64,000 bases of DNA from Mayamaea pseudoterrestris (lineage: Eukaryota), in NCBI GenBank assembly GCA_027923505.1, contig BROI01000002.1:620001-684000 (forward strand). The letters run 5' to 3'. Position 1 is the first letter of the stretch; each line of letters starts with the position of its first letter. The position numbers and the translations under genes were made by a program. The notes below the pieces were generated by a model. That model was not told the DNA's origin. It did not search any database and was given only the letters and a program-made list of their open reading frames with translations. This document shows, piece after piece, positions 1-54,339 of this stretch.

Positions 1-3000
1 GCTAGCGGTGCACCTTAAGTGGCAATTGAACCTTCCAAAATGGCCTGCAGACCTCATAATACAACCAATATGGATTTGAACAATGATTGGGACTCAAAGA
101 CTTGTCCATTTGGGCGTAGAGCCATCACCATGCCCTGAGACTCCGCACATTCAACCAATGGTTGAATGTGCCAGCCCTGCTCCCTTTTTGGCTGCAAAGA
201 TCATCAGCATTGCCCGCTGAGCCCTCCAATTTCTTTCAAATCATGTTTGTTGTCAATGCTGGGCCATAAGTTGGTGAGTTGCACCTCAGCATCCATCACC
301 ATGTCTGTCACAGTGAGACTGAGCAGATCCAACAACTTGTTGGATCTGCTAGCGTTGGATCTGCTAGCGGTGCACCTCAAGTGCCAATTGAGACTTCCAA
401 AATGATCTACAGACCCCATAATACATTCAGTAAGGACTTGAACAATGATTGGGACTCATAGACTTGTCCATTCGGGCGTAGATCCATCACCATGCCCTGA
501 GACTCCACACATTCAACCAATGGTTGAATGTGCCAGCCCTGCTCCCTTTTTGGCTGCAAAGATCATCAGCATTGCCTGCTGAGCCCTCCAATTTCTTTCA
601 AATCATGTTTGTTGTCAATGCCCCATAAGTTGGTGAGTTGCACCTCAGCATCCATCACCATGTGTGTCACAGTGAGACTGAGCAGATCCAACAACTTGTT
701 GGATCTGCTAGCGGTGCACCTCAAGTGGCAATTGAGACTTCCAAAATGGTCTGAAGACCCCATAATACAACCAGTAAGGACTTGAACAATGATTGAGACT
801 CATAGACTTGTCCATTTGGGCATAGAGCCATCACCATGCCCTGAGACTCCACACATTCAACCAATGGTTGAATGTGCCAGCCCTGCTCCCTTTTTGGCTG
901 CAGGGATTATCCGAATTGCCCGCTGAGCCCTCCAATTTCTTTCAAATCATGTTTGTTGTCAATGCTGGGCCATAAGTTGGTGAGTTGCACCTCAGCATCC
1001 ATCACCATGTAGCGACGTCACCCGTGGCAATTGAACCTTCAGCAAAAAAAGTCATTGGCAGGCATCACCTGCCCCGCAACTGAGCCCAACAACATGTTGG
1101 ACAAGTGTACTCAAGTGGCATTGAGATTCCAAGATGCGCCGCTAGACCCCAACAGCCAAACATGGACTTACCAGTTGAAGTGACTCAAGACTTGTCCATT
1201 TGGCGTAGGCCATCACTATGCCCTGAGACTCGCACATTCAACAACTGGTTGAATGTGCCAGCCTGCTCCTTTTTGGCTGCAGGGATAATCAGCATTGCCC
1301 GCTGAGCCCTCCAATTTCTTTCAAATCATGTTTGTTGTCAATGACTAGGCAATAAGTTGGTCCATTGCACCTCAGCATCCGTCACCATGAGACTGAACAG
1401 ATCCTACAACTTGTTGGATCTGCTAGCGGCGCACCTCAAGTGGCAATTGAACCTTCCAAAATGGCCTGCAGACCCCATAATACAACCAATATTTGGATTT
1501 GAATGTTGATTGGGACTCATAGACTTGTCCATTTGGGCGTAGAGCCATCACCATGCCCTGAGACTCCGCACACTCAACCAATGGTTGAATGTGCCAGCCC
1601 TGCTCCCTTTTTGGCTGCAAAGATCATCAGCATTGCCCGCTGAGCCCTCCAATTTCTTTCAAATCATGTTTGTTGTCAATGCTGGGCCATAAGTTGGTGA
1701 GTTGCACCTCAGCATCCATCAACATGTCTGTCACAGTGAGACTGAGCAGATCCAACAACTTGTTGGATCTGCTAGCGGTGCACCTCAAGTGGCAATTGAG
1801 ACTTCTAAAATGGTCTGCAGACCCCATAATACATCCAATATGGACTTGAACAATTATTGAGACTCATAGGCTTGTCCATTTGGGCGTAGAGCCATCACCA
1901 TGCCCTGAGACTCCACACATTCAACCAATGGTTGAATGTGCCAGCCCTGCTCCCATTTTGGCTGCAAAGATCATCAGCATTGCCCGCTGAGCCCTCCAAT
2001 TTCTTTCAAATCATGTTTGTTGTCAATGCTGGTCCATAAGTTGGTGAGTTGCACCTCAGCATCCATCACCATGTCTGTCACAGTGAGACTGAGCAGATCC
2101 AACAACTTGTTGGATCTGCTAGCGTTGGATCTGCTAGCGGTGCACCTCAAGTGGCAATTAAGACTTCCAAAATGTTCTGCAGAACCCATAATACATTCCG
2201 TAAGGACTTGAATAATGATTGGGACTCATAGACTTGTCCATTTGGGCATAGAGCCATCACCATGCCCTGAGACTCCGCACATTCAACTAATGGTTGAATG
2301 TGCCAGCCCTGCTCCCTTTTTGGCTGCAGGGATCATCAGCATTGCCCACTGAGCCCTCCAATTTCTTTCAAATCATGTTTGTTGTCAATGATGGGCCATA
2401 AGCTGGTGAGTTGCACCTCAGCATCCATCACCATGTATGCCACAGTGAGACTGAGCAGATCCAACAACTTGTTGGATCTGCTAGCGTTGGATCTGCTAGT
2501 GGCGCATCTCAAGTGGCAATTGAACCTTCCAAAATGGCCTGCAGACCCCATAATACAACCAATATTTGGATTTGAATGTTGATTGGGACTCAAAGACTTG
2601 TCCATTTGGGTGTAGAGCCATCACCAAGCCCTGAGACTACGCACATTCAACCAATGGTTGAATGTGCCAGCCCTGCTACCTTTTTGGCTGCAAAGATCAT
2701 CAGCATTGCCCGCTGAGCCCTCCAATTTCTTTCAAATCATGCTTTTTGTCAATGCTGGGCCATAAGTTGGTGAGTTGCACCTCAGCACCCATCACCATGT
2801 CTATCACAGTGAGACTGAGCAGATCCAACAACTTGTTGGATCTGCTAGCGCTGCACCTCAAGTGGCAATTGAGACTTCCAAAATGGGCTGCAGACCACAT
2901 AATACATTCAATATGGACTTGAACAATGATTGGGACTCATAGACTTGTCCATTTGGGCGTAGAGCCATCACCATGCCCTGAGACTCCGCACATTCAACCA

Positions 3001-6000
3001 ATGGTTGAATGTGCCAGCCTTGCTCCCTTTTTGGCTGCAGGGATCATCCGAATTGCCCGCTGAGCCCTCCAATTTCTTTCAAATCATGTTTGTTGTCAAT
3101 GCTGGGCCATAAGTTGGTGAGTTGCACCTCAGCATCCATCACCATGTCTGTCACAGTGAGACTGAGCAGATCCAACAACTTGTTGGATCTGCTAGCGGTG
3201 CACCTCAAGTGGCAATTGAGACTTCCAAAAGGGTCTGCAGACCCCATAATACATCCAATATGGACTTGAACAATTATTGAGACTCATAGGCTTGTCCATT
3301 TGGGCGTAGAGCCATCACCATGCCCTGAGACTCCGCACATTCAACCAATGGTTGAATGTGCCAGCCCTGCTCCCTTTTTGGCTGCAGGGATCATCCGGAT
3401 TGCCCGCTGAGCCCTCCAATCTCTTTCAAATCATGTTTGTTGTCAATGATGGGCCATAAGTTGGTCAGTTGCACCTCAGCATCCATCACCATGTATGTCA
3501 CAGTGAGACTGAGCACCTCCAACAACTTGTTGGATATGCCAGCGGTGCACCTCAGGTGGCAAGGGAAACTTCCAAAATGGCCTGCAGACCCCATAATACA
3601 ACCGATATGGACTTGAACATTGATTGGGACTCATAGACTTGTTCATTTGGGTGTGTAAGCCATCACCATGCCCTGAGACTCCGCACATTCAACCAATGGT
3701 TGAATGTGCCAGCCCTGCTCCCTTTTCGGCTGCAGGGATCATCAGCATTGCCTGCTGAGCCCTCCAATTTCTTTTGAATCATGTTTCTTGTCAATGATGA
3801 TCCATAAGTTGGTCAGTTGCATCTCAGCATCCATCAATGTATGCCACAGAGTGAAAGAGCACATCCAACAACTTGTTGGATCTGCTAGCGGTGCACCTCA
3901 AGTGGCAAGGGAAACTTCCAAAATGGCCTGCAGACCCCATAATACAACCAATATGGACTTGAACAATGATTGGGACTCATAGACTTGTCCATTTGGGCGT
4001 AGAGCCATCACCATACCCTGAGACTCCGCACATTCAACCAATGGTTAAATGTGCCAGCCCTGCTCCATTTTTGGCTGCAGGGATCATCAGCATTGCCCGC
4101 TGAGCCCTCCAATTTCTATCAAATCATGTTTGTTGTCAATGATGGGCCATAAGTTGGTGAGTTGCACCTCAGCATCCATCACCATGTCTGTCACAGTGAG
4201 ACTGAGCAGATCCAACAACTTGTTGGATCTGCTAGCGGTGCACCTCAAGTGGCAATTGAGACTTCCAAAATGGCCTGCAGACCCCATAATACAACCAATA
4301 TGGATTTGAATGTTGATTGGGACTCATAGACTTGTCCATTTGGGCGTAGAGCCATCACCATACCCTGAGACTCCGCACATTCAACCAATGGTTAAATGTG
4401 CCAGCCCTGCTCCATTTTTGGCTGCAGGGATCATCAGCATCGCCCGCTGAGCCCTCCAATTTCTATCAAATCATGTTTGTTGTCAATGATGGGCCATAAG
4501 TTGGTGAGTTGCACCTCAGCATTCATCACCATGTCTGTCACAGTGAGACTGAGCAGATCCAACAACTTGTTGGATCTGCTAGCGGTGCACCTCAAGTGGC
4601 AATTGAACCTTCCAAAATGGCCTGCAGACCCCATAATACAGCCAATATGGATTTGAATGTTGATTGGGACTCATAGACTTGTCCATTTGGGCGTAGAGCC
4701 ATCACCATGCCCTGAGACTCCGCACATTCAACCAATGGTTAAATGTGCCAGCCCTGCTCAATTTTTGGCTGCAGGGATCATCAGCATTGCCCGCTGAGCC
4801 CTCCAATTTCTTTCAAATCATGTTTGTTGTCAATGATGGGCCATAAGTTGGTGAGTTGCACCTCAGCATCCATCACCATGTCTGTCACAGTGAGACTGAG
4901 CAGATCCAACAACTTGTTGGATCTGCTAGCGGTGCACCTCAAGTGGCAATTGAGACTTCCAAAATGGCCTGCAGACCCCATAATACAACCAATATGGATT
5001 TGAATGTTGATTGGGACTCATAGACTTGTCCATTTGGGCGTAGAGCCATCACCATGCCCTGAGACTCTGCACATTCAACCAATGGTTGAATGTGCCAGCC
5101 CTGCTCCCTTTTTGGCTGCAGGGATCATCCGGATTGCCCGCTGAGCCCTCCAATTTCTTTTAAATCATGTTTGTTGTCAATGCTGGGCCATAAGTTGGTG
5201 AGTTGCACCTCAGCATCCATCACCATGTCTGTCACAGTGAGACTGAGCAGATCCAACAACTTGTTGGATCTGCTAGCGGTGCACCTCAAGTGGCAATTGA
5301 ACCTTCCAAAATGGCCTGCAGACCCCATAATACAACCAATATGGATTTGAATGTTGATTGGGACTCATAGACTTGTCCATTTGGGCGTAGAGCCATCACC
5401 ATGCCCTGAGACTCTGCACATTCAACCAATGGTTGAATGTGCCAGCCCTGCTCCCATTTTGGCTGCAAAGATCATCAGCATTGCCCGCTGAGCCCTCCAA
5501 TTTCTTTCAAATCATGTTTGTTGTCAATGATGGGCCATAAGTTGGTCAGTTGCACCTCAGCATCCATCACCATGTACGCCATTGTGAGACTGAGCGGATC
5601 CAACAACTTGTTGGATCTGCTAGCGGTGCACCTCAAGTGGCAAGTGAGACTTCCAAAATGGCCTGCAGACCCCATAATACAACCAATATGGATTTGAATG
5701 TTGATTGGGACTCATAGACTTGTCCATTTGGGCGTGGAGCCATCACCATGCCCTGAGACTCCGCACATTCAACCAATGGTTGAATGTGCCAGCCCTGCTC
5801 CCTTTTTGGCTGCAGGGATCATCCGGATTGCCCGCTGAGCCCTCCAATTTCTTTCAAATCATGTTTGTTGTCAATGCTGGGCCATAAGTTGGTGAGTTGC
5901 ACCTCAGCATCCATCACCATGTCTGTCACAGTGAGACTGAGCAGATCCAACAACTTGTTGGATCTGCTAGCGGTGCACCTCAAGTGGCAATTGAGATTTC

Positions 6001-9000
6001 CTAAAGGGTCTGCAGACCCCATAATACAACCAATATGGACTTGAACATTGATTGGGACTCATAGACTTGTCCATTTGGGCGTAGAGCCATCACCATGCCC
6101 TGAGACTCCGCACATTCAACCAATGGTTGAATGTGCCAGCCCTGCTCCCTTTTTGGCTGCAGGGATCATCAGCATTGCCCGCTGAGCCCTCCAATTTCTT
6201 TCAAATCATGTTTGTTGTCAATGATGGGCCATAAGTTGGTGAGTTGCACCTCAGCATCCATCACCATGTATGCCACAGTGAGACTGAGCAGATCCAACAA
6301 CTTGTTGGATCTGCTAGCGGTGCACCTCAAGTGGCAATTGAGACTTCCAAAATGGCCTGCAGACCCCATAATACAACCAATATGGATTTGAATGTTGATT
6401 GGGACTCATAGACTTGTCCATTTGGGCGTAGAGCCATCACCATGCCCTGAGACTCCGCACATTCAACCAATGGTTGAATGTGCCAGCCCTGCTCCCTTTT
6501 TGGCTGCAGGGATCATCAGCATTGCCCGCTGAGCCCTCCAATTTCTTTCAAATCATGTTTGTTGTCAATGATGGGCCATAAGTTGGTCAGTTGCACCTCA
6601 GCATCCATCACCATGTATGCCACAGTGAGACTGAGCAGATTCAACAACTTGTTGGATCTGCTAGCGGTGCACCTCAAGTGGCAAGTGAGACTTCCAAAAT
6701 GGCCTGCAGACCCCATAATACAACCAATATGGACTTGAACATTGATTGGGACTCATAGACTTGTCCATTTGGGCGTGGAAGCCATCACCATGCCCTGAGA
6801 CTCCGCACATTCAACCAATGGTTGAATGTGCCAGCCCTGCTCCCTTTTTGGCTGCAGGGATCATCAGCATTGCCCGCTGAGCCCTCCAATTTCTTTCAAA
6901 TCATGTTTGTTGTCAATGCTGGGCCATAAGTTGGTGAGTTGCACCTCAGCATCCATCACCATGTATGCCACAGTGAGACTGAGCAGATCCAACAACTTGT
7001 TGGATCTGCTAACGGTGCACCTCAAGTGGCAATTGAACCTTCCAAAATGGTCTGAAGACCCCATAATACAACCCGTATGGACTTGAACAATGATTGGGAC
7101 TCAAAGACTTGTCCATTTGGGCAGCCATCACTTTGCCCTGAGACTCCGCACATTCAACCACTGGTTGAATGTGCCAGCCCTGCTCCCTTTTTTGCTGCAG
7201 GGATCATTAGCATTGCCCGCTGAGCCCTCCAATTTCTTTCAAATCATGTTTGTTGTCAATGCTGGGCCATAAGTTGGTGAGTTGCACCTCAGCATCCATC
7301 ACCATGTATGTCACAGTGAGACTGAGCAGATCCAACAACTTGTTGGATCTGCTAGCGGTGCACCTCAAGTGGCAATTGAGACTTCCAAAATGGTCCGCAG
7401 ACCCCAAAATTCATTCAATATGGACTTGAACAATAAATGGGACTTCAAGACATGTCCATTTGGGCTGGGCCATAAGTTGGTGAGTTGCACCTCAGCATCC
7501 ATCACCATGTCTGTCACAGTGAGACTGAGCAGATCCAACAACTTGTTGGATCTGCTAGCGGTGCACCTCAAGTGGCAATTGAGATTTCCTAAAGGGTCTG
7601 CAGACCCCATAATACAACCAATATGGACTTGAACATTGATTGGGACTCATAGACTTGTCCATTTGGGCGTAGAGCCATCACCATGCCCTGAGACTCCGCA
7701 CATTCAACCAATGGTTGAATGTGCCAGCCCTGCTCCCTTTTTGGCTGCAGGGATCATCAGCATTGCCCGCTGAGCCCTCCAATTTCTTTCAAATCATGTT
7801 TGTTGTCAATGATGGGCCATAAGTTGGTGAGTTGCACCTCAGCATCCATCACCATGTATGCCACAGTGAGACTGAGCAGATCCAACAACTTGTTGGATCT
7901 GCTAGCGGTGCACCTCAAGTGGCAATTGAGACTTCCAAAATGGCCTGCAGACCCCATAATACAACCAATATGGATTTGAATGTTGATTGGGACTCATAGA
8001 CTTGTCCATTTGGGCGTAGAGCCATCACCATGCCCTGAGACTCCGCACATTCAACCAATGGTTGAATGTGCCAGCCCTGCTCCCTTTTTGGCTGCAGGGA
8101 TCATCAGCATTGCCCGCTGAGCCCTCCAATTTCTTTCAAATCATGTTTGTTGTCAATGATGGGCCATAAGTTGGTCAGTTGCACCTCAGCATCCATCACC
8201 ATGTATGCCACAGTGAGACTGAGCAGATTCAACAACTTGTTGGATCTGCTAGCGGTGCACCTCAAGTGGCAAGTGAGACTTCCAAAATGGCCTGCAGACC
8301 CCATAATACAACCAATATGGACTTGAACATTGATTGGGACTCATAGACTTGTCCATTTGGGCGTAGAGCCATCACCATGCCCTGAGACTCCGCACATTCA
8401 ACCAATGGTTGAATGTGCCAGCCCTGCTCCCTTTTTGGCTGCAGGGATCATCAGCATTGCCCGCTGAGCCCTCCAATTTCTTTCAAATCATGTTTGTTGT
8501 CAATGCTGGGCCATAAGTTGGTGAGTTGCACCTCAGCATCCATCACCATGTATGCCACAGTGAGACTGAGCAGATCCAACAACTTGTTGGATCTGCTAAC
8601 GGTGCACCTCAAGTGGCAATTGAACCTTCCAAAATGGTCTGAAGACCCCATAATACAACCCGTATGGACTTGAACAATGATTGGGACTCAAAGACTTGTC
8701 CATTTGGGCAGCCATCACTTTGCCCTGAGACTCCGCACATTCAACCACTGGTTGAATGTGCCAGCCCTGCTCCCTTTTTTGCTGCAGGGATCATTAGCAT
8801 TGCCCGCTGAGCCCTCCAATTTCTTTCAAATCATGTTTGTTGTCAATGCTGGGCCATAAGTTGGTGAGTTGCACCTCAGCATCCATCACCATGTATGTCA
8901 CAGTGAGACTGAGCAGATCCAACAACTTGTTGGATCTGCTAGCGGTGCACCTCAAGTGGCAATTGAGACTTCCAAAATTGCCAGCAGACCCCAAAATTCA

Positions 9001-12000
9001 TTCAATATGGACTTGAACAATAAATGGGACTTCAAGACATGTCCATTTGGGTGTGGGCGCCATCACCATGCCCTGAGACTCTGCACGTTCAACCAATGGT
9101 TGAATGTGCCAGCCCTGCTCCCTTTTGTCTGCAGGGATCATCAGCATTGACCGCTGAGCCCTCCAATTTCTAGAAAATCATGTTTGGCCATCACCATGCC
9201 CTGAGACTCTGCACGTTCAACCAATGGTTGAATGTGCCAGCCCTGCTCCCTTTTGTCTGCAGGGATCATCAGCATTGACCGCTGAGCCCTCCAATTTCTA
9301 TAAAATCATGTTTGTTGTCAATGCTGGGCCATAAGTTGGTCCGTTGCACCTCAGCATCCATCACCATGTCTGTCACAGTGAGACTGAGCAGATCCAACAA
9401 CTTGTTGGATCTGCTAGCGGTGCACCTCAAGTGGCAATTGAGACTTCCAAAATGGTCTGCAGACCCCATAATACAAACAATATGGACTTGAACAATGATT
9501 GGGACTCATAGACTTGTCCATTTGGGCGTAGAGCCATCACCATGCCCTGAGACTCCGCACATTCAACCAATGGTTGAATGTGCCAGCCCTGCTCCCTTTT
9601 TGCCTGCAAAGATCATCAGCATTGCCCGCTGAGCCCTCCAATCTCTTTCAAATCATGTTTGTTGTCAATGATGGGCCATGAGTTGGTCCCTTGCACCTCA
9701 GCATCCATCACCATGTCTGTCACAGTGAGACTAAGCAGATCCAACAACTTGTTGGATCTGCTAGCGGTGCACCTCAAGTGGCAATTGAGACTTCCAAAAT
9801 GGTCCGCAGACCCCATAATACATTCAATATGGACTTGAACAATGATTGGGACTCATAGACTTGTCCATTTGGGCGTGGAGCCATCACCATGCCCTGAGAC
9901 TCCGCACATTCAACCAATGGTTGAATGTGCCAGCCCTGCTCCCTTTTTGGCTGCAGGGATCATCCGGATTGCCCGCTGAGCCCTCCAATCTCTTTCAAAT
10001 CATGTTTGTTGTCAATGATGGGCCATAAGTTGGTCCGTTGCACCTCAGCATCCATCACCATGTCTGTCACAGTGAGACTGAGCAGATCCAACAACTTGTT
10101 GGATCTGCTAGCGGTGCACCTCAAGTGGCAATTGAACCTTCCAAAATGGTCTGTAGACCACATAATACAACCAGTACGGACTTGAACAATGATTGGGACT
10201 CAAAGACTTGTCCATTTGGGCGTAGAGCCATCACCTTGCCCTGAGACTGCGCACATTCAATTTATTAGTTGAATGTGCCAGCCCTGCTCCCTTTTTGGCT
10301 GCAGGGATCATCAGCATTGCCCGCTGAGCCCTCCAATTTCTTTCAAATCATGTTTGTTGTCAATGATGGGCCATAAGTTGGTGAGTTGCACCTCAGCATC
10401 CATCACCATGTCTGTCACAGTGAGACTGAGCAGATCCAACAACTTGTTGGATCTGCTAGCGGCGCACCTCAAGTGGCAATTGAACCTACAAAATGGCCTG
10501 CAGACCCCATAATACAACCAATATGGATTTGAATGTTGATTGGGACTCATAGACTTGTCCATTTGGGCGTAGAGCCATCACCATGCCCTGAGACTCCGCA
10601 CATTCAACCAATGGTTGAATGTGCCAGCCCTGCTCCCTTTTTGGCTGCAAAGATCATCAGCATTGCCCGCTGAGCCCTCCAATTTCTTTCAAATCATGTT
10701 TGTTGTCAATGCTGGGCCATAAGTTGGTGAGTTGCACCTCAGCATCCATCACCATGTCTGTCACAGTGAGACTGAACAGATCCAACAAATTGTTGGATCT
10801 GTTAGCGATGCACCTCAAGTGGCAAGTGAGACTTCCAAAATTGCCAGCAGACCCCAAAATACATTCAATATGGACTTGAACAATAAATGGGACTTAACGA
10901 CATGTCCATTTGGGTGTGGGCGCCATCACCATGCCCTGAGACTCCGCACATTCAACCAATGGTTGAATGTGCCAGCCCTGCTCCCTTTTTGGCTGCAAAG
11001 ATCATCAGCATTGCCCACTGAGCCCTCCAATTTCTTTCAAATCATGTTTGTTGTCAATGCTGGGCCATAAGTTGGTGAGTTGCACCTCAGCATCCATCAC
11101 CATGTCTGTCACAGTGAGACTGAGCAGATCCAACAACTTGTTGGATCTGCTAGCGGTGCACCTCAAGTGGCAATTGAGACTTCCAAAATGGTCTGCAGAC
11201 CCCATAATACATTCAATAAGGACTTGAACAATGATTGGGACTCATAGACTTGTCCATTTGGGCGTAGAGCCATCACCATGCCCTGAGACTCCGCACATTC
11301 AACCAATGGTTGAATGTGCCAGCCCTGCTCCCTTTTTGGCTGCAGGGATCATCAGCATTGCCCACTGAGCCCTCCAATTTCTTTCAAATCATGTTTGTTG
11401 TCAATGATGGGCCATAAGTTGGTAAGTTGCACCTCAGCATCATCACCATGTATGCCACAGTGAGACTGAGCAGATCCAACAACTTGTTGGATCTGCTAGC
11501 GTTGGATCTGCTAGTGGCGCATCTCAAGTGGCAATTGAACCTTCCAAAATGACCTGCAGACCCCAAAATACAACCAAAATGGACTTGAACACTGATTGGA
11601 ACACATAGATTTGTCCGTTTGGGGTGGAAGCCATCATCATGCCCTGAGACTCCGCACATTCAACCAATGGTTGAATGTGCCAGCCCTGCTACCTTTTTGG
11701 CTGCAAAGATCATCAGCATTGCCCGCTGAGCCCTCCAATTTCTTTCAAATCATGCTTTTTGTCAATGCTGGGCCATAAGTTGGTGAGTTGCACCTCAGCA
11801 TCCATCACCATGTCTGTCACAGTGAGACTGAGCAGATCCAACAACTTGTTGGATCTGCTAGCGGTGCACCTCAAGTGGCAAGGGAAACTTCCAAAATGGC
11901 CTGCAGACCCCATAATACAACCGATATGGACTTGAACATTGATTGGGACTCATAGACTTGTCCATTTGGGCGTAGAGCCATCACCATGCCCTGAGACTCC

Positions 12001-13020
12001 GCACATTCAACCAATGGTTGAATGTGCCAGCCCTGCTCCCTTTTTGGCTGCAGGGATCATCCGGATTGCCCGCTGAGCCCTCCAATTTCTTTCAAATCAT
12101 GTTTGTTGTCAATGCTGGGCCATAAGTTGGTGAGTTGCACCTCAGCATCCATCACCATGTCTGTCACAGTGAGACTGAGCAGATCCAACAACTTGTTGGA
12201 TCTGCTAGCGGTGCACCTCAAGTGGCAATTGAGACTTCCAAAATGGTCTGCAGACCCCATAATACATCCAATATGGACTTGAACAATTTTTGAGACTCAT
12301 AGGCTTGTCCATTTGGGCGTAGAGCCATCACCATGCCCTGGACTCCGCCACCACGGTCTCCCTTTTTGGCTGCAGGGATCATCCGCATTGCCCGCTGGGC
12401 CCTAAATTTCTTTCAAATCATGTTTGTTGTCAATGCTGGGCCATAAGTTGGTGAGTTGCACCTCAGCATCCATCACCATGTCTGTCACAGTGGACAGCAG
12501 ACTCAACAACTTGTTGGGCCCTCATGACATAAGCTGAAACACGCGAACCAAGGGGCTCATAGACTTGTCCATTGGGCGTGGGCCATCACCATGCCCTGAG
12601 ACTCCACACATTCAACCGTTGGTTGAATGTGCCAGCCCTGCTCCCTTTTTGGCTGCAGGGATCATCAGCATTGCCTGCTGAGCCCTCTAATTTCTTTTAA
12701 ACCATGTTTGTTGTCAATGATGGGCCATAAGTTGGTGAGTTGCACCTCAGCATCCATCACCATGTCTGTCACAGTGAGACGAGAATTGAACTGGATCTGC
12801 TAGCGGTTGCACACCGAAAACTTCCAAAATGGTCCGAGACCCCATAATACATTCAATATGGACTTGGACAATGGTTGGGACTCATAGACTTGTCCATTTG
12901 GGCGTGGAGCCATCACCATACCCTGAGACTCCGCACATTCAGCCAATGGTTGAATGTCCCAGCCCTCCCTTTTTGGCTGCAAGATAAATTGCAGACTCAT
13001 CAGCAGTTGCCCCGTGTAGC
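1..13020. repeat. Satellite I array, left block (347-bp unit = 171+176-bp dimer); continues beyond the window start
   Basis: The same sequence recurs every 347 bp (repeat-derived ORF starts at 4049, 4396, 4743, 5090, 5437, 5784, 6131, 6478). Some units are 362-364 bp because of a 15-bp internal duplication. Noisy patches occur at ~1010-1400 and ~12340-13020. Confidence 0.98.
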
Positions 13021-13852
13021 CCTCCCATAGTCGCAGGAATCAACTATGGATGATTTTATGCACCAATCTCACTGCAAGCATGTCCACAAGCATTGTCAAA
13101 CAGGATTGATGGAGCAAGACTACAATGGGTGGTAGGTTAAAGGCCATGCACGGTAGCTCCATGAACTGCCCTCCCATACCATAGCTGCTTGGAATCAGCT
13201 ATGGATTTTTTTTGCACCAGAAACACTGCAAGCATATTTCCAAGAATAGCCAAATAGGATTGATGGAGCAAGACTACAATTGGGGGTTGGTTTGGAAGGC
13301 CATGCACTGTACCGTAACACCATGGAGATGGCTACTGTGTGGGTGTTTGAATTGCCCTCCCGTAACGTAGCTGCTTGGAATCAGCTATGGATGATTTTTA
13401 AGCACCAATCTCACCGCAACCATGTCCCTAAGCATAGCCAAACAGGATTGATTGAGCAAGACTACACGTGGGGGTAGATTTGGAAGGCAATGCACTGTAG
13501 CACCATGGAGCTGGTACCTGTGTAAATGTCTGAATGGCCCTCCCATACCGTAGCTGCTTGGAATCAGCTATGAAGGATTTTTATGCACCAATCTCACTGC
13601 AAGGTTGTCCACAAGCATTGTCAAACAGGATTGATGGAACAAGACTACAATTGGGGGTTGGTTTGAAGGCCGCCTGTAGCACCATGGAGCTGGTTCCTGT
13701 GTAGATGTCTGAATTGCCCTCACATACCGTAGCTGCTTGGAATTGGCTACAGAGGATTTTTATGCACCAATCTCACCGCAAGTATGTCCCCAAGCAGGCC
13801 TACACCATGGCTTGGTCCACACGATGGTCATAGCCACACCCCAAGTTGTGGA
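13021..13852. repeat. Block of Satellite II (~4.5 units) plus the first ~60 bp of Satellite III, embedded in Satellite I
   Basis: Near-identical to ~18324-19188, including the Sat-II/Sat-III junction (caggcctacaccatggcttggtccacacg). Rejoins Sat-I at gtgga|ccataagttgg. Confidence 0.9.
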
Positions 13853-16800
13853 CCATAAGTTGGTGAGTTGCACCTCAGCATCCATCACCATGTCTGTCAC
13901 AGTGAGACTGAGCAGATCCAACAACTTGTTGGATCTGCTAGCGGTGCACCTCAAGTGGCAATTGAGACTTCCAAAATGGTCTGCAGACCCCATAATACAA
14001 CCAGTATGGACTTGAACAATGATTGGGACTCATAGACTTGTCCATTTGGGTGTAGAGCCATCACCATGCCCTGAGACTCCGCTCATTCAACGAATGGTTG
14101 GATGTGCCAGCCCTGCTCCCATTTTGGCTGCAGGGATCATCAGCATTGCCCACTGAGCCCTCCAATTTCTTTCAAATCATGTTTGTTGTCAATGATGTAC
14201 CAAAAGTTGGTGAGTTGCACCTCAGCATCATCACCATGTCTGTCACAGTGAGTCTGAGCAGATCCAACAACTTGTTGGATCTGCTAGCGGTGCACCTCAA
14301 GTGGCAATTGAGACTTCCAAAATGGTCTGCAGACCCCATAATACAAACAATATGGACCGACCCCATAATAACCCCAGTGGACTATGAACAACTTGGATTT
14401 GGGCACTTCAGTAGAACCTTAAAGCTGCAATCCATTTGGGCGTGGAGCCATCACCATGCCCTGAGACTCCGCACATTCAACCAATGGTTGAATGTGCCAG
14501 CCCTGCTCCCCTTTTGGCTGCAGGGATCATCCGGATTGCCCGCTGAGCCCTCCAATTTCTTTTAAATCATGTTTGTTGTCAATGCTGGGCCATAAGTTGG
14601 TCCGTTGCACCTCAGCATCCATCACCATGTCTGTCACAGTGAGACTGAGCAGATCCAACAACTTGTTGGATCTGCTAGCGGTGCACCTCAAGTGGCAATT
14701 GAGACTTCCAAAATGGTCTGCAAACCCCATAATACATTCAGTATGGAGTTGAACAATGATTGGGACTCATAGACTTGTCCATTTGGGCGTAGAGCCATCA
14801 CCATGCCCTGAGACTCCGCACATTCAACCAATGGTTGAATGTGCCAGCCCTGCTCCCTTTTTGGCTGCAAAGATCATCCGGATTGCCCGCTGAGCCCTCC
14901 AATTTCTTTCAAATCATGTTTGTTGTCAATGCTGGACCATAAGTTGGTGAGTTGCACCTAAGCATCCATCACCATGTCTGTCACAGTGAGACTGAGCAGA
15001 TCCAACAACTTGTTGGATCTGCTAGCGGTGCACCTCAAGTGGCAATTGAGATTTCCTAAAGGGTCTGCAGACCCCATAATACATTCAATATGGACTTGAA
15101 CAATGATTGGGACTCATAGACTTGCCCATTTGGGCGTGGAGCCATCACCATGCCCTGAGACTCCGCACATTCAACCAATGGTTGAATGTGCCAGCCCTGC
15201 TCCCTTTTTGGCTGCAAAGATCATCAGCATTGCCCGCTGAGCCCTCCAATTTCTTTCAAATCATGTTTGTTGTCAATGATGGGCCATAAGTTGGTCCCTT
15301 GCACCTCAGCATCCATCACCATGTCTGTCACAGTGAACTGAGCAGATCCAACAACTTGTTGGATCTGCTACCGGTGCACCTCAAGTGGCAATTGAGACTT
15401 CCAAAATGGTCTGAAGACCACATAATACATTCAATATGGACTTGAACAATGATTGGGACTCATAGACTTGTCCATTTGGGTGTAGAGCCATCACCATGCC
15501 CTGAGACTCCGCTCATTCAACCAATGGTTGGATGTACCAGCCCTGCTCCCATTTTGGTTGCAGGGATCATCAGCATTGCCCGCTGAGCCCTCCAATTTCT
15601 TTCAAACCATGTTTGTTGTCAATGATGGGCAATAAGTTGGTCCGTTGCACCTCAGCATCTGTCACCATGTCTGTCACTGTGAGACTGAGCAGATCCAACA
15701 ACTTGTTGGATCTGCTAGCGGTGCACCTCAAGTGGCAATTGAACCTTCCAAAATGGCCTGCAGACCCCATAATACATCCCGTATGGACTTGAACAATGAT
15801 TGGGACTCATAGACTTGTCCATTTGGGCGTAGATCCATCACCATGCCCTGAGACTCCGCACATTCAACCAATGGTTGAATGTGCCAGCCCTGCTCCCTTT
15901 TTGGCTGCAACGATCGTCAGCATTGCCCGCTGAGCCCTCCAATTTCTTTCAAATCATGTTTGTTGTCAATGCTGGGCCATAAGTTGGTGAGTTGCACCTC
16001 AGCACCCATCACCATGTCTGTCACAGTGAGACTGAGCAGATCCAACAACTTGTTGGATCTGCTAGCGGTGCACCTCAAGTGGCAATTGAACCTTCCAAAA
16101 TGGTCTGAAGACCCCATAATACATCCAATATGGACTTGAACAATGATTGGGACTCATAGACTTGTCCATTTGGGTGTAGAGCCATCACCATGCCCTGAGA
16201 CTCCGCACATTCAACCAATGGTTGAATGTGCCAGCCCTGCTCCCATTTTGGCTGCAAAGATAATCAGCATTGCCCACTGAGCCCTCCAATTTCTTTCAAA
16301 TCATGTTTGTTGTCAATGCTGGGCCATAAGTTGATGAGTTGCACCTCAGCATCCATCACCATGTCTGTCACAGTGAGACTGAGCAGATCCAACAACTTGT
16401 TGGATTTGCTAGCGGTGCACCTCAAGTGGCAATTGAGACTTCCAAAATGGTCTGCAGACCCCATAATACATTCAATATGGACTTGAACAATGATTGGGAC
16501 TCATAGACTTGTCCATTTGGGCGTAGATCCATCACCATGCCCTGAGACTCCACACATTCAACCCAGCCCTGCTCCCTTTTTGGCTGCAAAGATCATTAGC
16601 ATTGCCCACTGAGCCCTCCAGTTTCTTTCAAATCATGTTTGTTGTCAATGATGGGCCATAAATTGGTGAGTTGCACCTCAGCATCCATCACCATGTATGC
16701 CACAGTGAGACTGAGCAGATCCAACAACTTCCAACAACTTGTTGGATCTGCTAGCGTTGGATCTGCTAGCGGTGCACCTCAAGTGGCAATTGAGACCTCC

Positions 16801-18063
16801 AAAATGGTCTGCAAACCCCATAATACATTCAGTTAGGACTTGAACAATGATTGGGACTCATAGACTTGTCCATTTGGGCGTAGAGCCATCACCATGCCCT
16901 GAGACTCCGCACATTCAACCAATGGTTGAATGTGCCTGTCCTGCTCCCTTTTTGGCTGCAAAGATCATCAGCATTGCCCGCTGAGCCCTCCAATTTCTTT
17001 CAAATCATGTTTGTTGTCAATGCTGGGCCATAAGTTGGTGAGTTGCACCTCAGCACCCATCACCATGTCTGTCACAGTGAGACTGAGCAGATCCAACAAC
17101 TTGTTGGATCTGCTAGCGGTGCACCTCAAGTGGCAATTGAACCTTCCAAAATGGCCTGCAGACCCCATAATACAACCAACATTTGGATTTGAATGTTGAT
17201 TGGGACTCATAGACTTGTCCATTTGGGCGTAGAGCCATCACCATGCCCTGAGACTCCGCACATTCAACCAATGGTTGAATGTGCCAGTCCTGCTCCCTTT
17301 TTGGCTGCAAAGATCATCATCATTGCCCGCTGAGCCCTCCAATTTCTTTCAAATCATGTTTGTTGTCAATGATGGGCCATAAGTTGGTGAGTTGCACCTC
17401 AGCATCCATCACCATGTCTGTCACAGTGAGACTGAGCAGATCCAACAACTTGTTTGATCTACTAGCGGTGCACCTCAAGTGGCAATTGAGACTTCCAAAA
17501 TGGTCTGCAGACCCCATAATACAACCAGTATGGACTTGAACAATGATTGAGTTTCATAGACTTGTCCATTTGGGCATAGAGCCATCACCATGCCCTGAGA
17601 CTCCGCACATTCAACCAATCTGCAAAGATCATCAGCATTGCCCGCTGAGCCCTCCAATTTGTTTCAAATCATGTATGTTGTCAATGATGGGCCATAAGTT
17701 GGTGAGTTGCACCTCAGCATCCATCACCATGTATGCCACAGTGCAAAAATGGCCTGCAGACCCCATAATACATTCAATATGGACTTGAACAATGATTGGG
17801 ACTCATAGACTTGTCCAATTGGGCGTAGAGCCATCTCCATAGCCTGAGACTCCACACATTCAACCAATGGTTGAATGTGCCAGCCCTGCTCCCATTTTGG
17901 CTGCAGGTATCTTGGCTGCAGGGATCATCAGCATTGCCTGCTGAGCCCTCCAATTTCTTTCAAATCATGTATGTTGTCAATGATGGGCCATAAGCTGGTC
18001 AGTTGCACCTCAGCATCCATCACCATGTCTGCCACAGTGAGATTGAACAGATCTAACAACTTG
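13853..18063. repeat. Satellite I array, right block (347-bp unit), more rearranged towards its end
   Basis: 347-bp period (15532, 15879, 16226). Internal deletions at ~16563, ~17620 and ~17742. Ends inside the B palindrome at ~18063. Confidence 0.97.
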
Positions 18064-19130
18064 GTATTGATGGAGCAAGAAAACAATTGGGGTAGGCTGA
18101 ATGCCATGCACTGTAGCACCATGGAGCTGGTTCCTGTGTGGATGTCTGCACTGCCCTCCCATACCGTAGCTGCTAGGAATCAGCTTTGGATCATTTTTAT
18201 GCACGATTGTCCCCAAGCGTAGCCAAGCAGGATTGATGGAGCAAGACTACAATTAGGGGTAGATTTGGAAGGCCATGCACTGTAGCACCATGGAGCTGGC
18301 TCCTGTGTGGGTGTCTGAATTGCCCTCCCATACCGTAGCTGCTTGGAATCAACTATGGATGATTTTATGCACCAATCTCACTGCAAGCATGTCCACAAGC
18401 ATTGTCAAACAGGATTGATGGAGCAAGACTACAATGGGTGGTAGGTTTAAAAGGCCATGCACGGTAGCACCATAGTTCCAGTGGGGATGTCTGAACTGCC
18501 CTCCCATACCGTAGCTGCTTGGAATCAGCTATGGATTTTTTTTTAGCACCAGAAACACTGCAAGCATATTTCCAAGCATAGCCAAATAGGATTGATGGAG
18601 CAAGACTACAATTGGGGGTTGGTTTGGAAGGCCATGCACTGTACCGTACCACCATGGAGCTGGCTCCTGTGTGGGTGTCTGAATTGCCCTCCCGTAACGT
18701 AGCTGCTTGGAATCAGCTATGGATGATTTTTAAGCACCAATCTCACCGCAACCATGTCCCTAAGCATAGCCAAACAGGATTGATTGAGCAAGACTACACG
18801 TGGGGGTAGATTTGGAAGGCAATGCACTGTAGCACCATGGAGCTGGTACCTGTGTAAATGTCTGAATGGCCCTCCCATACCGTAGCTGCTTGGAATCAGC
18901 TATGAAGGATTTTTATGCACCAATCTCACTGCAAGGTTGTCCACAAGCATTGTCAAACAGGATTGATGGAACAAGACTACAATTGGGGGTTGGTTTGGAA
19001 GGCCATGCACTGTAGCACCATGGAGCTGGTTCCTGTGTAGATGTCTGAATTGCCCTCACATACCGTAGCTGCTTGGAATTGGCTACAGAGGATTTTTATG
19101 CACCAATCTCACCGCAAGTATGTCCCCAAG
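18064..19130. repeat. Satellite II, ~183-bp monomer, ~6 copies
   Basis: The motif gattgatgga(g/a)caagactac (gattgattgagcaagactac at 18778) recurs at 18231, 18413, 18590, 18778, 18961 (spacings 182, 177, 188, 183). Confidence 0.95.
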
Positions 19131-20075
19131 CAGGCCTACACCATGGCTTGGTCCACACGATGGTCATAGCCACACCCCAAGTTGTGGATTAATACCCCCA
19201 GGGTGCCTCATGCCTGGCCACTCAACAACCCAATGATTCAGGAAAAACATGTCCAGGGTATGTCATTATCATGTGCATAGTCTCAAACGGTGAAAAAACA
19301 ACTGCCTTGATGCCTACACCATGGAATGGTCTACACGGTGGGTCATGGTCAAGACCTTAAGTTATGGATTCATACCACCAGGATGCCCCATGCCCTGGCC
19401 ACTCAACGACCCAAAGAGTCAGGCAAAACATATACAGAATGTGCCATTGACATGTGCATAGTTTCAAATGGTGCAAAAAGGACTGCCTGGAGGCCTACAC
19501 CATAGATTTGGTCTGCACAACAGGTCATGGTCACAGACTAGGTAGTTATGGATTCATACCACTAGGATGCCCCATGTTCTGGCCACTCAACGAACCAATG
19601 AATCAGGCAAAAACTATCCAGGTGTGCCATTGACATGCACATAGTCTCAAATGGTGCAAAAAGGACTGCCTGGAGGCCTACACCATGGATTGGTCTACAC
19701 AATGGGTCACGGCCAACACCCCAAGTTATGGATTCATACCACTAGGATGCCCCATGCCCTGGCCACTCAACAACCCAATGAGACAGGCAAAACATGTTCC
19801 GGGTGTGCCATTGTCATGAGCACAGTTTCAAATGGTGCAAAACCAACTGCCTGGAGGCCTACACCATACATCGGTCAACACCTCAAGTTATGGATTCATA
19901 CCACTAGGATGCCCCATGCCCTGACCACTCAACGACCCAAAGAGTCAGGCAAAACATATCCAGAATGTGCCATTGACATGTGAATAATCTCCAATGGAGC
20001 AAAAAGGACTGACTTTGCATGTAAGCCGACACCATGGAATGGTCTACATGATAGGTATGTCCAACACCCCACATC
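19131..20075. repeat. Satellite III, ~181-bp monomer, ~5 diverged copies
   Basis: The motif cctacaccat recurs at 19135, 19313, 19494, 19677, 19858 (spacings 178, 181, 183, 181). The block aagttatggattcataccac-aggatgccccatg is shared. Confidence 0.93.
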
Positions 20076-23255: not shown

Positions 23256-26200
23256 CTAAACTATTTGTATGTCGCTGCCCATCATTTCTTTTGGCAATGC
23301 GTACTCATCTTCCTTCAGGTCAAGTGATCCGATATTGTCAAGGTTGTCGGAAGCATCGTCCGATTCCGAGTCGTCGTCGCCCGATGCGTCAGACTGAGAT
23401 GATGAATGCCGGGCAAACTCTGACGCGTGGTTGAACTCGCCGTCCTTTGGTATGAAGATAGGATTGTTTTCTTCCTTTTCGGCATTTCTTGACCTGTAGT
23501 AGCGCCACAGGAAATACGCTGATATTATCATGGCCAGCGCGCTCAGGACAAGCCCGGCAACGAGTCCACCCTTTTTGACGGTACCAGTACAAGTGTCAAC
23601 CATGTCATTGCTACCAATCGCAGAACAATCAATTCCCATACCCGATAAGACGCTGCTGTAGGCAGCAATGACGACTGCCGCACCCTGCGGTAGAGCTTTG
23701 CCAGAAATCAGGTCGAAACTGTCGGCAATTGTATTAGCTGCTTCTTCGTCAACATCGTGAATAAGCGGAAGTACCGCTTGACTATACACGTAAGCCTGAG
23801 CAAGTAGTTGTTGTTGCCTGGCACCTGAGGTTTTTTGCAGGAGCAATGCTGTGCTGATGGCGCCTTGAATCAAGGGAACGGGCAGGAGGAAGGCGACTCG
23901 ACTCGCCGACTCCTGCAAATCATTGCAGCTTTCTGTCAGGGCAGCTCCGCGACCAGTGAATAGCTGGAGCACAATCATATCATTAAACTCAGAACTGCCG
24001 CGGACTTGGTGAGAGCAAGTGTCAAATTCCTCGCATTGCTGCTTTGAAAGCGCCCATAGTAACCTTCCCTCCGTTGACCCAGCTTCGGACGTACCCTCCA
24101 TGGATCCAATAATCCAAGACGCGGCCTTGTCCCATGCGGCGCCTGCCTTTTCGCTATTGCCGTCAATGCAAGCTTCAACCGCTTCTTGTACTCCCATTAA
24201 TGCTCCCATGTAAAGAACCATGAATGAAGCGATGCCAGTCAGGAGTGTCCGACGCTCCTCGGCCTCTAGGCCATTGTTGGCCATAAAGGCGAATCGAACA
24301 ACAGTATCGGCGTACGAACTGTCGCCTTGGTTATACCGTTTAAACGACTCGAACTGGGGGACTCTGGAACGATCCATGGATGTTGCCAAACTCTGGAGAC
24401 TGAGCGCCGTCCTATCGCTCGAAGTTTCCAGTTCCACGTGCTTGCCGTACTCGTAAAGTTGCTCGGCTGCCTCGTATGCTTCCATTCGCATGAGAATGTC
24501 AAGTTCTTGAATGTCCAAGTCAATCTTTGCAAAGTTTGTAATGTCTGTCGCGGCCTTGTAGCCAGCGATGGCAAAAGTCTCTTCCGACTTGGCGCATGAG
24601 ACGCTCGTCTCCGTCTTGTGAAGTCCAACCTCGTTACAAGCAATATTGAAACAAGGGAAAGTTTTCCTAATGGCGTCTACCAGCAAGTCGACCTCAACCT
24701 CGCTGTGAGAATAATCAAGCAACTTTGAACGCAGAAATTCAAACTGCGTTGGGCTGCAAGCAGCAACAAGTGGAACATAGGCATGGGCATAAACTCGTAT
24801 ACGGGCACGGTCTCCAACTCGCAAGTTGTGAATGAGGCCTTGAGCGTTAACAACAAGCATCTGAGCTATAATCTTGTTGACGATATGGAGTAGTCGCTTG
24901 ATTGTTGCATCTTCGGCGCATGCACTTGGTAACGACAGCTCAAACTTCGCCTGATGAAATAAGCGGAGGATGTTTGTATTAACAGTCGACTGCTTGCCTT
25001 GCATAGTGTTGAAGTACCCCCCGAGTTCTTCGGCAAGGGCATAGAAAAGATGACCTTTCTTTGTGTTGTCTGGATCAGCGAGCTCGCCATCGCCTATCCA
25101 ATAGGCGACCGCGCCATCGACTGAGTGCACGGCTTCGTCGTCAGTAAACATTCTATTCTTGCAGCTCGCGACGGTTAGATACAAATCATTTGCTAGCTCC
25201 ATCCATAAATTGAGAACAACAGCAGCCTCAGCGGCCACTGGCGATTTCAGAGGTGCGCCATCTGTCAATGCTTCTTGTACAATTGTGTTGGCGTACTGTC
25301 CGGCCTGCTCTCCCATGTAAAGACCTTGACTATCACGAAGTGCATAAACAGTAACCTGGTAGAGTGGATTATTCCTCATCGTTGTACTCGCATTTGTCGA
25401 AAACGAAGCAAAACTCCTCAGGTCGACAGCGACACCTTGGGCGTCGAAAATTGGTGAATTCTCGCCTTCGTCGTAAATGATTTTTGCCAGGGCCTCACGA
25501 CCAACTACCAACGCATCTTGCATCGCCTGAATGTCTAGAGCGATGTTGGCCTTGTCTTTGACATACGTAGACGTTGTGTATAAATCTTCTCCCAAATCTG
25601 TCGGAGTGTCGCGCTTAGGTTCAGTGGCTGACGTGCCACACGCTGAAAGACCAGTTGACGCCGGAACGCCGATAACGTTGCAGCTGATATTCATGGCATC
25701 ATATGCTCCCAGAAAAGCATTGAGCACATATTCGACCCCGTCAATAACCGGTTTACCATCGAGATGAAACTCCATGTTGCTTTGAACGATTGCAGCTGAA
25801 GTCTGATTAGCACTGTTCACGAAAGGTAGAATCGAGTCCGCTAGGATTGAACCAGAGGAAAGAGTCATATTCATAGATTGAGCAGGCAGCTTTTCGTTGA
25901 GCGCAGCAAATAACAGCGTTCCTTGGATAAGTGGAACCTGCATCGTCGCCAAGAGGTCCTGCAGGATTTCCTCAGCTGCGTCGCAATTGTTGGATACCAT
26001 AGCTCGCTTCATGTCTCGAAGTGACACAAGGACGAAATCATTCACAGCAGAATCAGTTCCTTCCTCGCACTTTCCGAACGTCCGGCACATGTCTTTGCTC
26101 AGAGCAAACATCAGTTTTCCACTTCCATCAGGGTCGCCTCCAGGATCAGGTCCTTCAATTGAACCGGCGAACAATGCTGCAGCTTGGTCAACGAGAGTGA

Positions 26201-29200: not shown

Positions 29201-29903
29201 TGTAAAGCATAAATCCTTGTACATTGTTTCCTCGAGGCTGGCCTTCGCCAATGTACAGTGCTGCTGCTTGGTCAAGAAATGCAATCATTTGAGAAGCGTC
29301 CCCATTCGCTTCGCAAACTTGCAGCATCTTATAAAAGGTTCCCCAGTAGCTCATGACAACATTCATAACTAGCGCTGCATCGCCTTGAATGCGCGTTCGG
29401 TTCAAGGAAAACAAGTCGTTGACCAATGTATTGCCGTATTCTTCAATGGGCGATCCATCAAAGTAACCAGTCTCGTCGCCTTCCTCTTTCATACCCAGCT
29501 CGTGAAAGGCATATCGGTAAACATTATACAGTGGAAATTCCGAGTACTGCGACGAGTTGCTGCTCAGACCAGCCAATGTCAAGGGCAGGGCATTTCTTCC
29601 ATTATCGAAAATGTTTCGCTTCTGCGAAAGATCCGTGCTCACGCGCATGTCGCGAATGTCGTAGGAAAGGTTCAGTCTGATGCAACCAACACAAATGAAA
29701 CAGCATCATGTTAGTAAATCGTAGCATTCTTATCAATGCACCTACACCGAGATGTAGAACTTTAGAACGTACAATCTGGAAACATCAGTCGTCGTCACAT
29801 ATCCAAAGGATCCGTCGGTGAGTGACGCTCTCGCCGTGGAGGCGAGCAGCAGCGCCAGTTGCAGCAAACGCCAATGGCTTCCAAAGATTGCCATGGTAGA
29901 CAT
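23256..29903 (-). CDS. Type I membrane protein (~2183 aa) with six FEA1/ISIP2A-family (low-iron-inducible) domains
   Basis: Exon 1 (29903-29773) encodes the signal peptide MSTMAIFGSHWRLLQLALLLASTARA. GT-AG intron 29772-29677 joins in frame to the 2130-aa ORF. Repeated motifs AGYxxxTD..IDLD, WDxxAAxxIGSMEG and VPLIQG. C-terminal TM helix LVAGLVLSALAMIISAYFLW. Confidence 0.8.
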
Positions 29904-33134: not shown

Positions 33135-33410
33135 GCTATGTCTATCTTCTTGGTTGCTTTTGTTGACTGCGTGATTGATGTTCGTCGGGACTGATGGGTG
33201 ATGGGTACGTCGAAAGCGATTCAAAGGTCGGATAACCTCGTCTAAAAACAGCTCACACCGTACAGTTCCGAAGCCAATTCTACGTAGATGCTCAGTGCGC
33301 ACACAAGTTGCAACAGGCGCAAAGCAAACCAGACGAAGATGGGAGCGATGTGATGGCAGACAACATGGTGATGGATGGATCTCGCGGGCGCGCGACGGCG
33401 CGGCACCGAG

Positions 33411-33467
33411 TGACGTCAACGCGAGAAGGATTTAGGGTTAAGGCTAACGGTACTAGATGACGTCATC
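33411..33467. promoter_or_regulatory. Two TGACGTCA (CRE/bZIP-type) palindromes flanking a TTTAGGGTTA telomere-like motif in a divergent promoter
   Basis: TGACGTCA at 33411-33418, GATGACGTCATC at 33456-33467 and tttagggtta at 33431-33440. Lies between the thrS (-) and DNAJC11-like (+) starts. Function is inferred only. Confidence 0.4.
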
Positions 33468-36868: not shown

Positions 36869-37182
36869 GTTGCTATAAGCTTTTGCTGGATGATGTCTTC
36901 GTCAAAGTTGCTTTGCTTTTCGACGGAACGAGTGGTGAGATTCGGTACCGGTCAGACTCATTTTTTGTCATACCGGTACTCATAGTGACGTCGCGTCATT
37001 CGAAACGGATGCGCTACGAAAAGGAGAGGGCAAAGGAGAGAAGGCTTTTCGTGACTTGTAAGAACGACCATTGCATCTCACAAGGGAGCAGCTTTCTCTA
37101 TAGTAACCTTCTGCTGCATAGAAACTTGGCTTTTTTAAATTCAAGTGTTTGTTGAATTGTCACTTTATCTTTCAGTGCCCTC

Positions 37183-54164: not shown

Positions 54165-54236
54165 CATACGTTCGTGTATTGTATTATGTCTTGCTGTTAG
54201 CATACGTTCGTGTATTGTATTATGTCTTGCTGTTAG
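54165..54236. repeat. Exact 36-bp tandem duplication
   Basis: catacgttcgtgtattgtattatgtcttgctgttag at 54165 and again at 54201. Confidence 0.95.
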
Positions 54237-54339
54237 CTATTTTACAATCCTTGATATTCTATCCTACATCATCATTACTATCCTCATGTGAACCTCCCTA
54301 AACGTACCGGTAGGCAATACAAACGATGCCTCAACCCCA

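Follow-up and report, generated by a model that had tools for sequence, protein, structure and literature searches.

How can a palindrome stay perfect while its sequence drifts? This question is raised by a stretch of 64,000 nucleotides (nt), hereafter the window, from contig BROI01000002.1 (GCA_027923505.1; forward strand, positions 620,001-684,000) of Mayamaea pseudoterrestris, a raphid pennate diatom. The window opens with a satellite array whose 347-base-pair (bp) dimeric unit carries one dyad in each half, here called dyad A and dyad B. The two dyads are homologous and perfectly symmetric, and each of the three arm differences between them is mirrored in the opposite arm. Some process keeps both dyads symmetric while the sequence drifts. 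Taken as a whole, the feature is an old, probably CpG-methylated, non-coding dimeric satellite with a perfect dyad of 13-14-bp arms per half-unit. Either arm copying or natural selection may cause the symmetry, and the array sequence does not demonstrate a function.

Dyads A and B and their mirrored differences

An initial annotation of this DNA had placed two perfect palindromes at 5069-5095 and 5246-5274, and both were found at exactly these coordinates and with exactly the sequence described (Table 1). It had also called them homologous, with three arm differences that are each mirrored, and this was borne out by alignment of the two halves of the unit and by the columns of alignment A1. 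The A/B differences C/G, T/C and C/A occupy columns 5, 8 and 13 and are mirrored at columns 25, 22 and 17. The dyads align centre to centre without gaps, and their central nucleotides differ (a in dyad A, c in dyad B).

Alignment of the consensus half-units gave 107 identical positions out of 159 aligned, with 29 gap columns and a score of 43, as compared with 6.0 ± 3.6 (maximum 23) in 200 shuffles; in a local alignment, z was 12.1 for A vs B. The halves are direct, not inverted, repeats, the minus-strand z being 2.1. A macro-dyad layout of the unit was considered and rejected; the weak minus-strand nhmmer matches (20-26 bits) start and stop at the two palindromes. Identity between A and B was 20/26 (77%) in the arms and about 87/132 (66%, by subtraction from the half-unit alignment) in the flanks, so that arm divergence is about equal to flank divergence. 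A perfect ancestor whose arms change independently at the observed divergence would have a probability of only 5e-6 to 9e-6 of remaining perfect with three or more mirrored pairs. The earlier proposal that symmetry rather than sequence is maintained is upheld in this way for the consensus, with three mirrored differences and arms no better conserved than flanks; it was not supported for individual copies, as described below.

Folded as single-stranded DNA (ssDNA), dyad A is predicted to form a 12-bp stem with a 3-nt loop at -13.1 kcal/mol (z -5.0), and dyad B reached -15.7 kcal/mol (z -5.4). None of 200 shuffles was as good in either case, and two flank controls gave -0.8 and -2.4 kcal/mol. 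The dyad symmetry is accompanied by predicted hairpin or cruciform potential above background (z about -5). General palindrome richness of the unit was ruled out, with 5 six-bp palindromes found and 5.2 expected; one short palindromic hexamer lies directly after dyad B (unit position 280). Outside the array, perfect inverted repeats were absent among the 25 longest pairs listed.

Variation and breakage among copies

Sites within 5 substitutions of the dyads numbered 46 for A (28 exact) and 45 for B (35 exact) in the window, giving 91 dyads. Successive starts are separated by 177 and 170 bases, corresponding to 178/169 between centres. The spacing described earlier was thus reproduced over about 18 kb, and the count of "about 100" dyads was not, 91 being found. 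By our own count, arms are perfectly complementary in 66 of the 91, comprising 30 A (two with a change of the centre only) and 36 B (including the copy at 10775), and 25 dyads are imperfect. At least 9 further expected dyads have been deleted or rearranged, as counted by us from affine alignments.

Across the 91 dyads, which fall into 23 distinct rows, 89.1% of cells pair, as compared with 80.6% after shuffling (0 of 500 as high) and 24-35% with the partner slid. These 23 rows form two clades, and the effective evidence is three independent pairs plus one singleton. T-G intermediates at the pair 8/22 were seen in 3 of the 23 rows.

Alignment of the monomers, proposed in the initial annotation as a check, gave a divided answer: covariation is present between the consensus dyads, and per-site variation is about equal inside and outside the arms. 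In all 53 aligned units, the mean non-consensus frequency was 0.032 in the dyads and 0.046 elsewhere, and the dyad windows ranked 67th and 137th of 347 sliding windows by variation. An intact set of 45 units was formed by dropping eight of the 53 as partial or rearranged; six of these have rearranged dyads, and their removal therefore makes the comparison of intact units favour the arms. In this set, the dyads had 26 distinct variants on 56 sites (0.46 per site) and the flanks 172 on 291 (0.59), and 23/56 dyad sites and 141/291 flank sites were variable (p = 0.38). Of about 24 distinct substitution variants in the arms (own count), 22 were one-sided and the other two form a single mirrored pair, located in the copy at 10775. 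This is the sole copy with a mirrored double change. Variant density and one-sidedness both argue against a visible protection of symmetry in individual copies. The commonest arm variant, present in 6 units, affects the outermost G of dyad A, which is the G of a CpG.

Some one-sided variants have the exact state of the other dyad at A/B-differing pairs, namely the dyad B copies at 3512, 3858, 6634 and 8222 and the dyad A copies at 1232, 14081 and 15511. By our own count, this state occurs in 4 of about 24 distinct arm variants, with approximately 1.8 expected, an excess that is not significant; changes of the centre likewise bring in the state of the other dyad. Exchange of states between A and B was rejected on this count. 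Such variants may reflect short A/B conversion or surviving intermediates.

The unit is present in contigs of 9 public sequencing runs from 3 studies, labelled with at least 5 organisms and one soil metagenome. No RNA run was listed among the nine, which has no bearing on expression. Logan contigs of four runs (X1, X4, X5 and X6; two studies) were aligned to one unit at 80% likeness or more, and an assembly artefact was ruled out by the presence of the unit in them. Variant places given here are among the matches listed, 40 of 60 variable places being listed. In dyad A, C>A at 5080 accounted for 37, 26, 55 and 29% of contig depth in X1, X4, X5 and X6, respectively, and A>C at the centre (5082) for 28, 15, 55 and 29%; the mirror place, 5084, was absent among the variable places listed. 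This one-sided form of dyad A, also found in the window at 1232-1258, is common in all four runs (26-55% of depth) and weakens the hairpin only slightly (-13.1 vs -11.6 kcal/mol). Intermediates with a single changed arm thus persist at high frequency for one of the three A/B differences. The listed variable places of dyad B were the outermost position 5246 (7-50%) and 5267 (3-13%), with neither mirror listed. Altogether, the listed variable places included 4/56 dyad and 36/291 flank positions (p = 0.36). Summed contig depth over both dyads was 2.5-4 times that of neighbouring bins in the four runs, an observation given no weight because depth cannot rank parts of the unit; the peak may come from dyads common to more diverged subfamilies (loose ends with diverged flanks) or from a contig-breaking effect.

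Insertions and deletions (indels) were read from affine alignments of the array to the consensus and by direct reading. In addition to the truncated dyads and the junction listed in Table 1, deletions within dyads were found at 12348-12358, 12518 and 12792, and near 10258 the 7 central bases of a dyad A are swapped for 8 others. The unit at 16731 has a further 10-bp duplication in the inner left arm. The five scattered 15-bp duplications (Table 1) reflect either a single duplication that amplification has spread or a site of repeated slippage. Of 26 indel or junction events counted by hand, 10 touch the dyads, whose share of the unit is 16%; binomial p was 0.005, 0.056 and 0.23 at a null of 0.16, 0.23 and 0.30 per event. 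These data are suggestive of dyads as preferred breakage sites. Several other events fall outside the dyads. These are the two most extensive rearrangements, which skip 144 and 218 unit positions (at 7464 and 9187), both remaining junctions with the 183-bp satellite, and either end of a 66-bp deletion by which an entire dyad B was lost (17744).

What keeps the dyads symmetric

The reading that we favour, with a probability of roughly 0.45, is that the dyads form ssDNA hairpins in which template switching rewrites one arm to match the other, the products being spread by homogenisation of the array. When DNA is single-stranded during replication or repair, a dyad would fold into a hairpin in vivo, and a mismatch between the arms would sometimes be erased by copying one arm from the other (intrastrand template switching, or quasipalindrome correction). 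Half of such events would bring back the old state and half would mirror the new one, the net effect being a mutational bias directed from asymmetry towards symmetry. The products would in turn be distributed along the array by unequal exchange and conversion. Given the long time elapsed after the A/B split, two perfect dyads with all of their differences mirrored could be produced without selection on sequence. Under templated correction, the same hairpins would make the dyads fragile, and this would explain why deletions and a satellite junction begin at dyad centres.

Quasipalindrome correction is already known, as are dyad-bearing satellites. In the available text of PMC8604942, PMC3820800, PMC7202029 and PMC13100816, covering bacteria, yeast and great apes, an imperfect inverted repeat is perfected by arm copying, and several mismatches, and the spacer too, may change at once. 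Because one template switch can copy several mismatches, the three mirrored changes need not represent three events. As described in these excerpts, the process predicts exactly mirrored differences such as those of the diatom dyads, and it is reported there for single loci and reporters, not as a force shaping a whole satellite family. Unlike those systems, the diatom satellite has one young mirrored variant only, and we infer correction from the pattern.

A mutational pressure of this kind would fit the arm divergence, the normal input of arm variants, the one-sided forms, the 10775 copy with its changed centre, and the dyad-centred breakage. Arm divergence close to flank divergence would be predicted by neutral change plus mirroring and not by purifying selection on sequence, and the mirrored double change with an altered centre at 10775 looks as a templated event would leave it. 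Arm-to-arm templated repair had been put forward in the initial annotation as an alternative cause, and it accounts for the data no worse than selection does.

Several observations weigh against templated correction. Arm sites with a variant in at least 5 of the 45 intact units numbered 0/56, vs 25/291 in the flanks (p = 0.020), where the threshold is one of five tried (the other four gave p = 0.14-0.38), the variants are linked and 8 units had been dropped. Of all 28-bp windows, that of dyad B has the highest share of copies identical to the consensus (0.76, rank 1 of 347; median 0.44), and the dyad A window ranks 65th of 347 (0.62). This hints that some force keeps arm variants from spreading, an effect not expected from unbiased correction by itself. 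Only one mirrored pair was seen, where chance alone would give an estimated few tenths of one; correction, if it occurs, is therefore slow relative to the age of these variants. In addition, breakpoints are not significantly enriched at dyads when the stricter null is applied, and the hairpin and template switch proposed for this organism are both read out of the pattern itself.

Selection for a hairpin or cruciform once per approximately 175 bp, acting in centromere specification, heterochromatin nucleation or replication control, is a possible but less probable cause, and the mirrored differences would then be true compensatory substitutions. They affect two deep stem pairs and one loop-adjacent pair, and the T-G intermediates at pair 8/22 follow the classical route of compensation. 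The common asymmetric variant hits the loop-adjacent pair and would be the least selected against, because it costs only 1.5 kcal/mol. The lack of any arm variant in 5 or more units and the uniformity of dyad B also speak for selection, as does the smaller share of listed variable places in the dyads of the public contigs, which is not significant. Against it, the density of singletons and of all variants in the arms is not below that of the flanks, imperfect arms are found in 25 of the 91 dyads and at least 9 others are destroyed, and the asymmetric form reaches 26-55% of contig depth. Moreover, with so many copies present, selection would be expected to act on each of them only very weakly. 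Templated correction and selection for a hairpin are not mutually exclusive.

RNA stems with compensatory substitutions are alike in that both sides change while pairing is kept, and one of the diatom pairs has T-G intermediates; unlike in such stems, no wobble route exists for two of the three dyad changes. In a CpG-depleted, non-coding repeat, a stem of 12-13 bp would more likely act, if at all, at the level of DNA rather than of a transcript.

Dyad symmetries have been proposed to mark centromeres. The satellites of Kasinathan and Henikoff (2018; PMC5889037), as far as the available text of that paper goes, resemble the diatom array in having tandem monomers with predicted hairpin or cruciform dyads, about one per nucleosome-sized unit. 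Their dyads are described there as shorter than 10 bp, whereas the diatom dyads have perfect 13-14-bp arms, and the diatom array, unlike those satellites, offers no evidence of centromere function. With regard to mirrored differences between two subrepeats, the words "covariation" and "compensatory" were not found in the same part of that paper.

The centromere framing of the initial annotation is without support. P. tricornutum and F. solaris belong to the same group as the host, the pennate diatoms, and the accessible parts of the respective reports (10.1101/096016 and 10.1101/2021.11.10.468027) describe their centromeres as short (approximately 0.5-3 kb), low in GC and free of repeats. The present array is at least 18 kb long, and its GC content (0.47-0.49) is the same as that of the surrounding genes. 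Only two 100-bp windows with 32% GC or less occur in the 64 kb (20251 and 35351), none of them in the array, which thus lacks the cluster of such windows without repeats that is typical of P. tricornutum centromeres. The array could not be placed at a centromere, and a role as one has no support, given that those known from diatoms are short, low in GC and repeat-free. No report of diatom centromeric satellites was found among the matches listed (best 15 of 461). It is unlikely that structure-selected hairpin or cruciform dyads mark a satellite-based centromere or heterochromatin domain in this pennate diatom.

The dyads may also be sites for one or two related dimeric, sequence-specific DNA-binding proteins, their symmetry being that of two identical half-sites; this we consider improbable. 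An odd-centred palindrome with an inner core and an outer block is a typical layout for a dimer site, and both dyads are odd-centred perfect palindromes with 10 of 13 half-site positions in common, among them an inner core of 4 bases and an outer block of 3. On the other hand, the half-sites are not conserved above their surroundings (77% vs 66% between A and B; variant density among copies about that of the flanks), and a candidate protein was not found among 16 long window open reading frames (ORFs). Two proteins would need to co-evolve with their sites. If one protein tolerated the three variable positions, they would have no cause to stay mirrored, which leaves selection on pairing or arm copying.

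Very improbable is inheritance of the dyad from a mobile element, with the satellite as an amplified element end (a rolling-circle transposon terminal hairpin or an inverted-repeat end): satellites often arise from transposon parts, according to the available text of PMC12628747, and dyad B is directly followed by a palindromic hexamer, but the 16 long window ORFs tested contain no transposase, Rep or helicase domain, no Rfam family matched, and the persistence of symmetry through 23-34% divergence after the A/B split is left unexplained.

Centromere and heterochromatin research has yet to settle whether satellite dyad symmetry is functional or a mutational by-product, a question that the mirrored dyads make testable. 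The array is a natural experiment, combining paralogous perfect dyads, three mirrored changes, abundant one-sided intermediates and dyad-centred breakpoints. If the symmetry is of mutational origin, a function cannot be deduced merely from perfect dyads and seemingly compensatory changes in repeats. If it is due to selection, the array would provide the first natural covariation evidence for functional upkeep of a non-B DNA structure in a satellite, and a satellite-based centromere or heterochromatin mark in a group whose centromeres, in the descriptions available, are short, low in GC and repeat-free. In the literature searched, which did not extend to older subscription-journal papers on beetle satellites, no report was found that combines satellite DNA with compensatory dyad or palindrome changes.

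The array, its base composition and its surroundings

The features are listed in Table 1. The array extends beyond the left end of the window and is broken at approximately 13029-13845 by the 183-bp satellite. In nhmmer, its 53 unit matches span 1-18065. The period of 347 and the 92-94% matches across 1110-9186 (TRF) are those of a satellite, i.e., a long head-to-tail array with high copy identity. A single stop-free frame of at least 150 amino acids (aa) was found in the array (14056-14565, 169 aa), the unit itself not having been scanned against protein families.

Table 1. Features of the satellite array and of the neighbouring repeats (window positions)
Feature	Position	Strand	Description
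347-bp dimeric satellite array	1..18063	+	TRF period 347; 53 plus-strand nhmmer matches to one unit
Reference unit	4993..5339	+	Dyad A = unit positions 77-103; dyad B = unit positions 254-282
Dyad A	5069..5095		Perfect palindrome 13+1+13 (13-bp arms, 1-nt centre)
Dyad B	5246..5274		Perfect palindrome 14+1+14 (14-bp arms, 1-nt centre)
Mirrored double-change copy of dyad B	10775..10803		Positions 2 and 28 and centre changed, arms still perfect; -13.0 kcal/mol
One-sided copy of dyad A	1232..1258		Left-arm position 12 and centre in dyad B state, right arm unchanged; -11.6 kcal/mol
Dyad A without centre and right arm	16550..16575		15-bp deletion placed at 16563
Cut dyad A	17605..17625		32-bp deletion from just past the centre, placed at 17620
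Last dyad B	18040..18066		Junction with 183-bp satellite (18063) about 3 nt past the centre
15-bp tandem duplication	339..369; also 2109-2139, 2471-2499, 11486-11514, 16741-16771	+	Most of dyad B right arm and 4 flank bases
183-bp satellite	18066..19132; also 13162-13796	+	TRF; similarity to A/B halves not detectable (z <= 2.1)
181-bp satellite	19132..19990	+	TRF; without clear similarity to A/B halves (z <= 3.4)

The observed/expected ratio of CpG was 0.23 in the array, 0.20 in the two neighbouring satellites (to 19990) and 1.09 in the genic part of the window (20800-64000). CpG sites of the unit were more variable than the other sites (0.089 vs 0.042, p = 0.006), and at the CpG at 5277/5278 both C>T and G>A occurred in the public contigs at 10-69% of depth. 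This pattern suggests the usual trace of long-term CpG methylation of repeats. CpG depletion together with variable CpG sites therefore points to an old repeat, which is probably heterochromatic. At least one pennate diatom thus has a large CpG-depleted satellite, unlike the descriptions of model diatoms.

The neighbouring 183-bp and 181-bp satellites were considered as kin of the A/B halves and rejected, with z of at most 3.4 vs 12.1 for A vs B; because no significant similarity to the halves was found, these units cannot be used as a third paralogue. The 183-bp unit has an imperfect dyad of its own, e.g., at 13179-13204 (12-nt arms, 92% complementary). The periods of all three satellites are near 170-183 bp when the 347-bp satellite is counted per half. 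One metagenome scan, with two conserved flank anchors around dyad B and the dyad left free, revealed no relatives; a metagenome locus that had matched (L001) proved to be a chance match, a GC-rich stretch without tandem repeat.

From 20.8 to 64 kb, the window is densely filled with long ORFs for ordinary eukaryotic proteins, including a protein kinase, a Fea1-domain protein, threonyl-tRNA synthetase, a sugar kinase, a DOCK-type exchange factor, Tdp1, an ion channel and others. The 16 long window ORFs tested yielded ordinary housekeeping families. The named relatives of the Tdp1 protein are from pennate diatoms, with 45-48% identity, and the contig that encodes it is 2.78 Mb long, which points to a chromosome-scale assembly. 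Three genes are split over 2-3 adjacent or overlapping frames, i.e., those for threonyl-tRNA synthetase (30881-33431, minus strand), an FGGY sugar kinase (37156-39494, plus strand) and the DOCK-type factor (40015-50877, plus strand), and short introns or frame changes are likely behind the splits. On the minus strand at 23256-29705, an ORF of 2149 aa, unusually long for the Fea1 family, has two stretches of Fea1 (low-iron-inducible periplasmic protein) near its C-terminus. In an intergenic region at 54165-54237, a 36-bp sequence is perfectly duplicated in tandem (2.0 copies, 100% matches).

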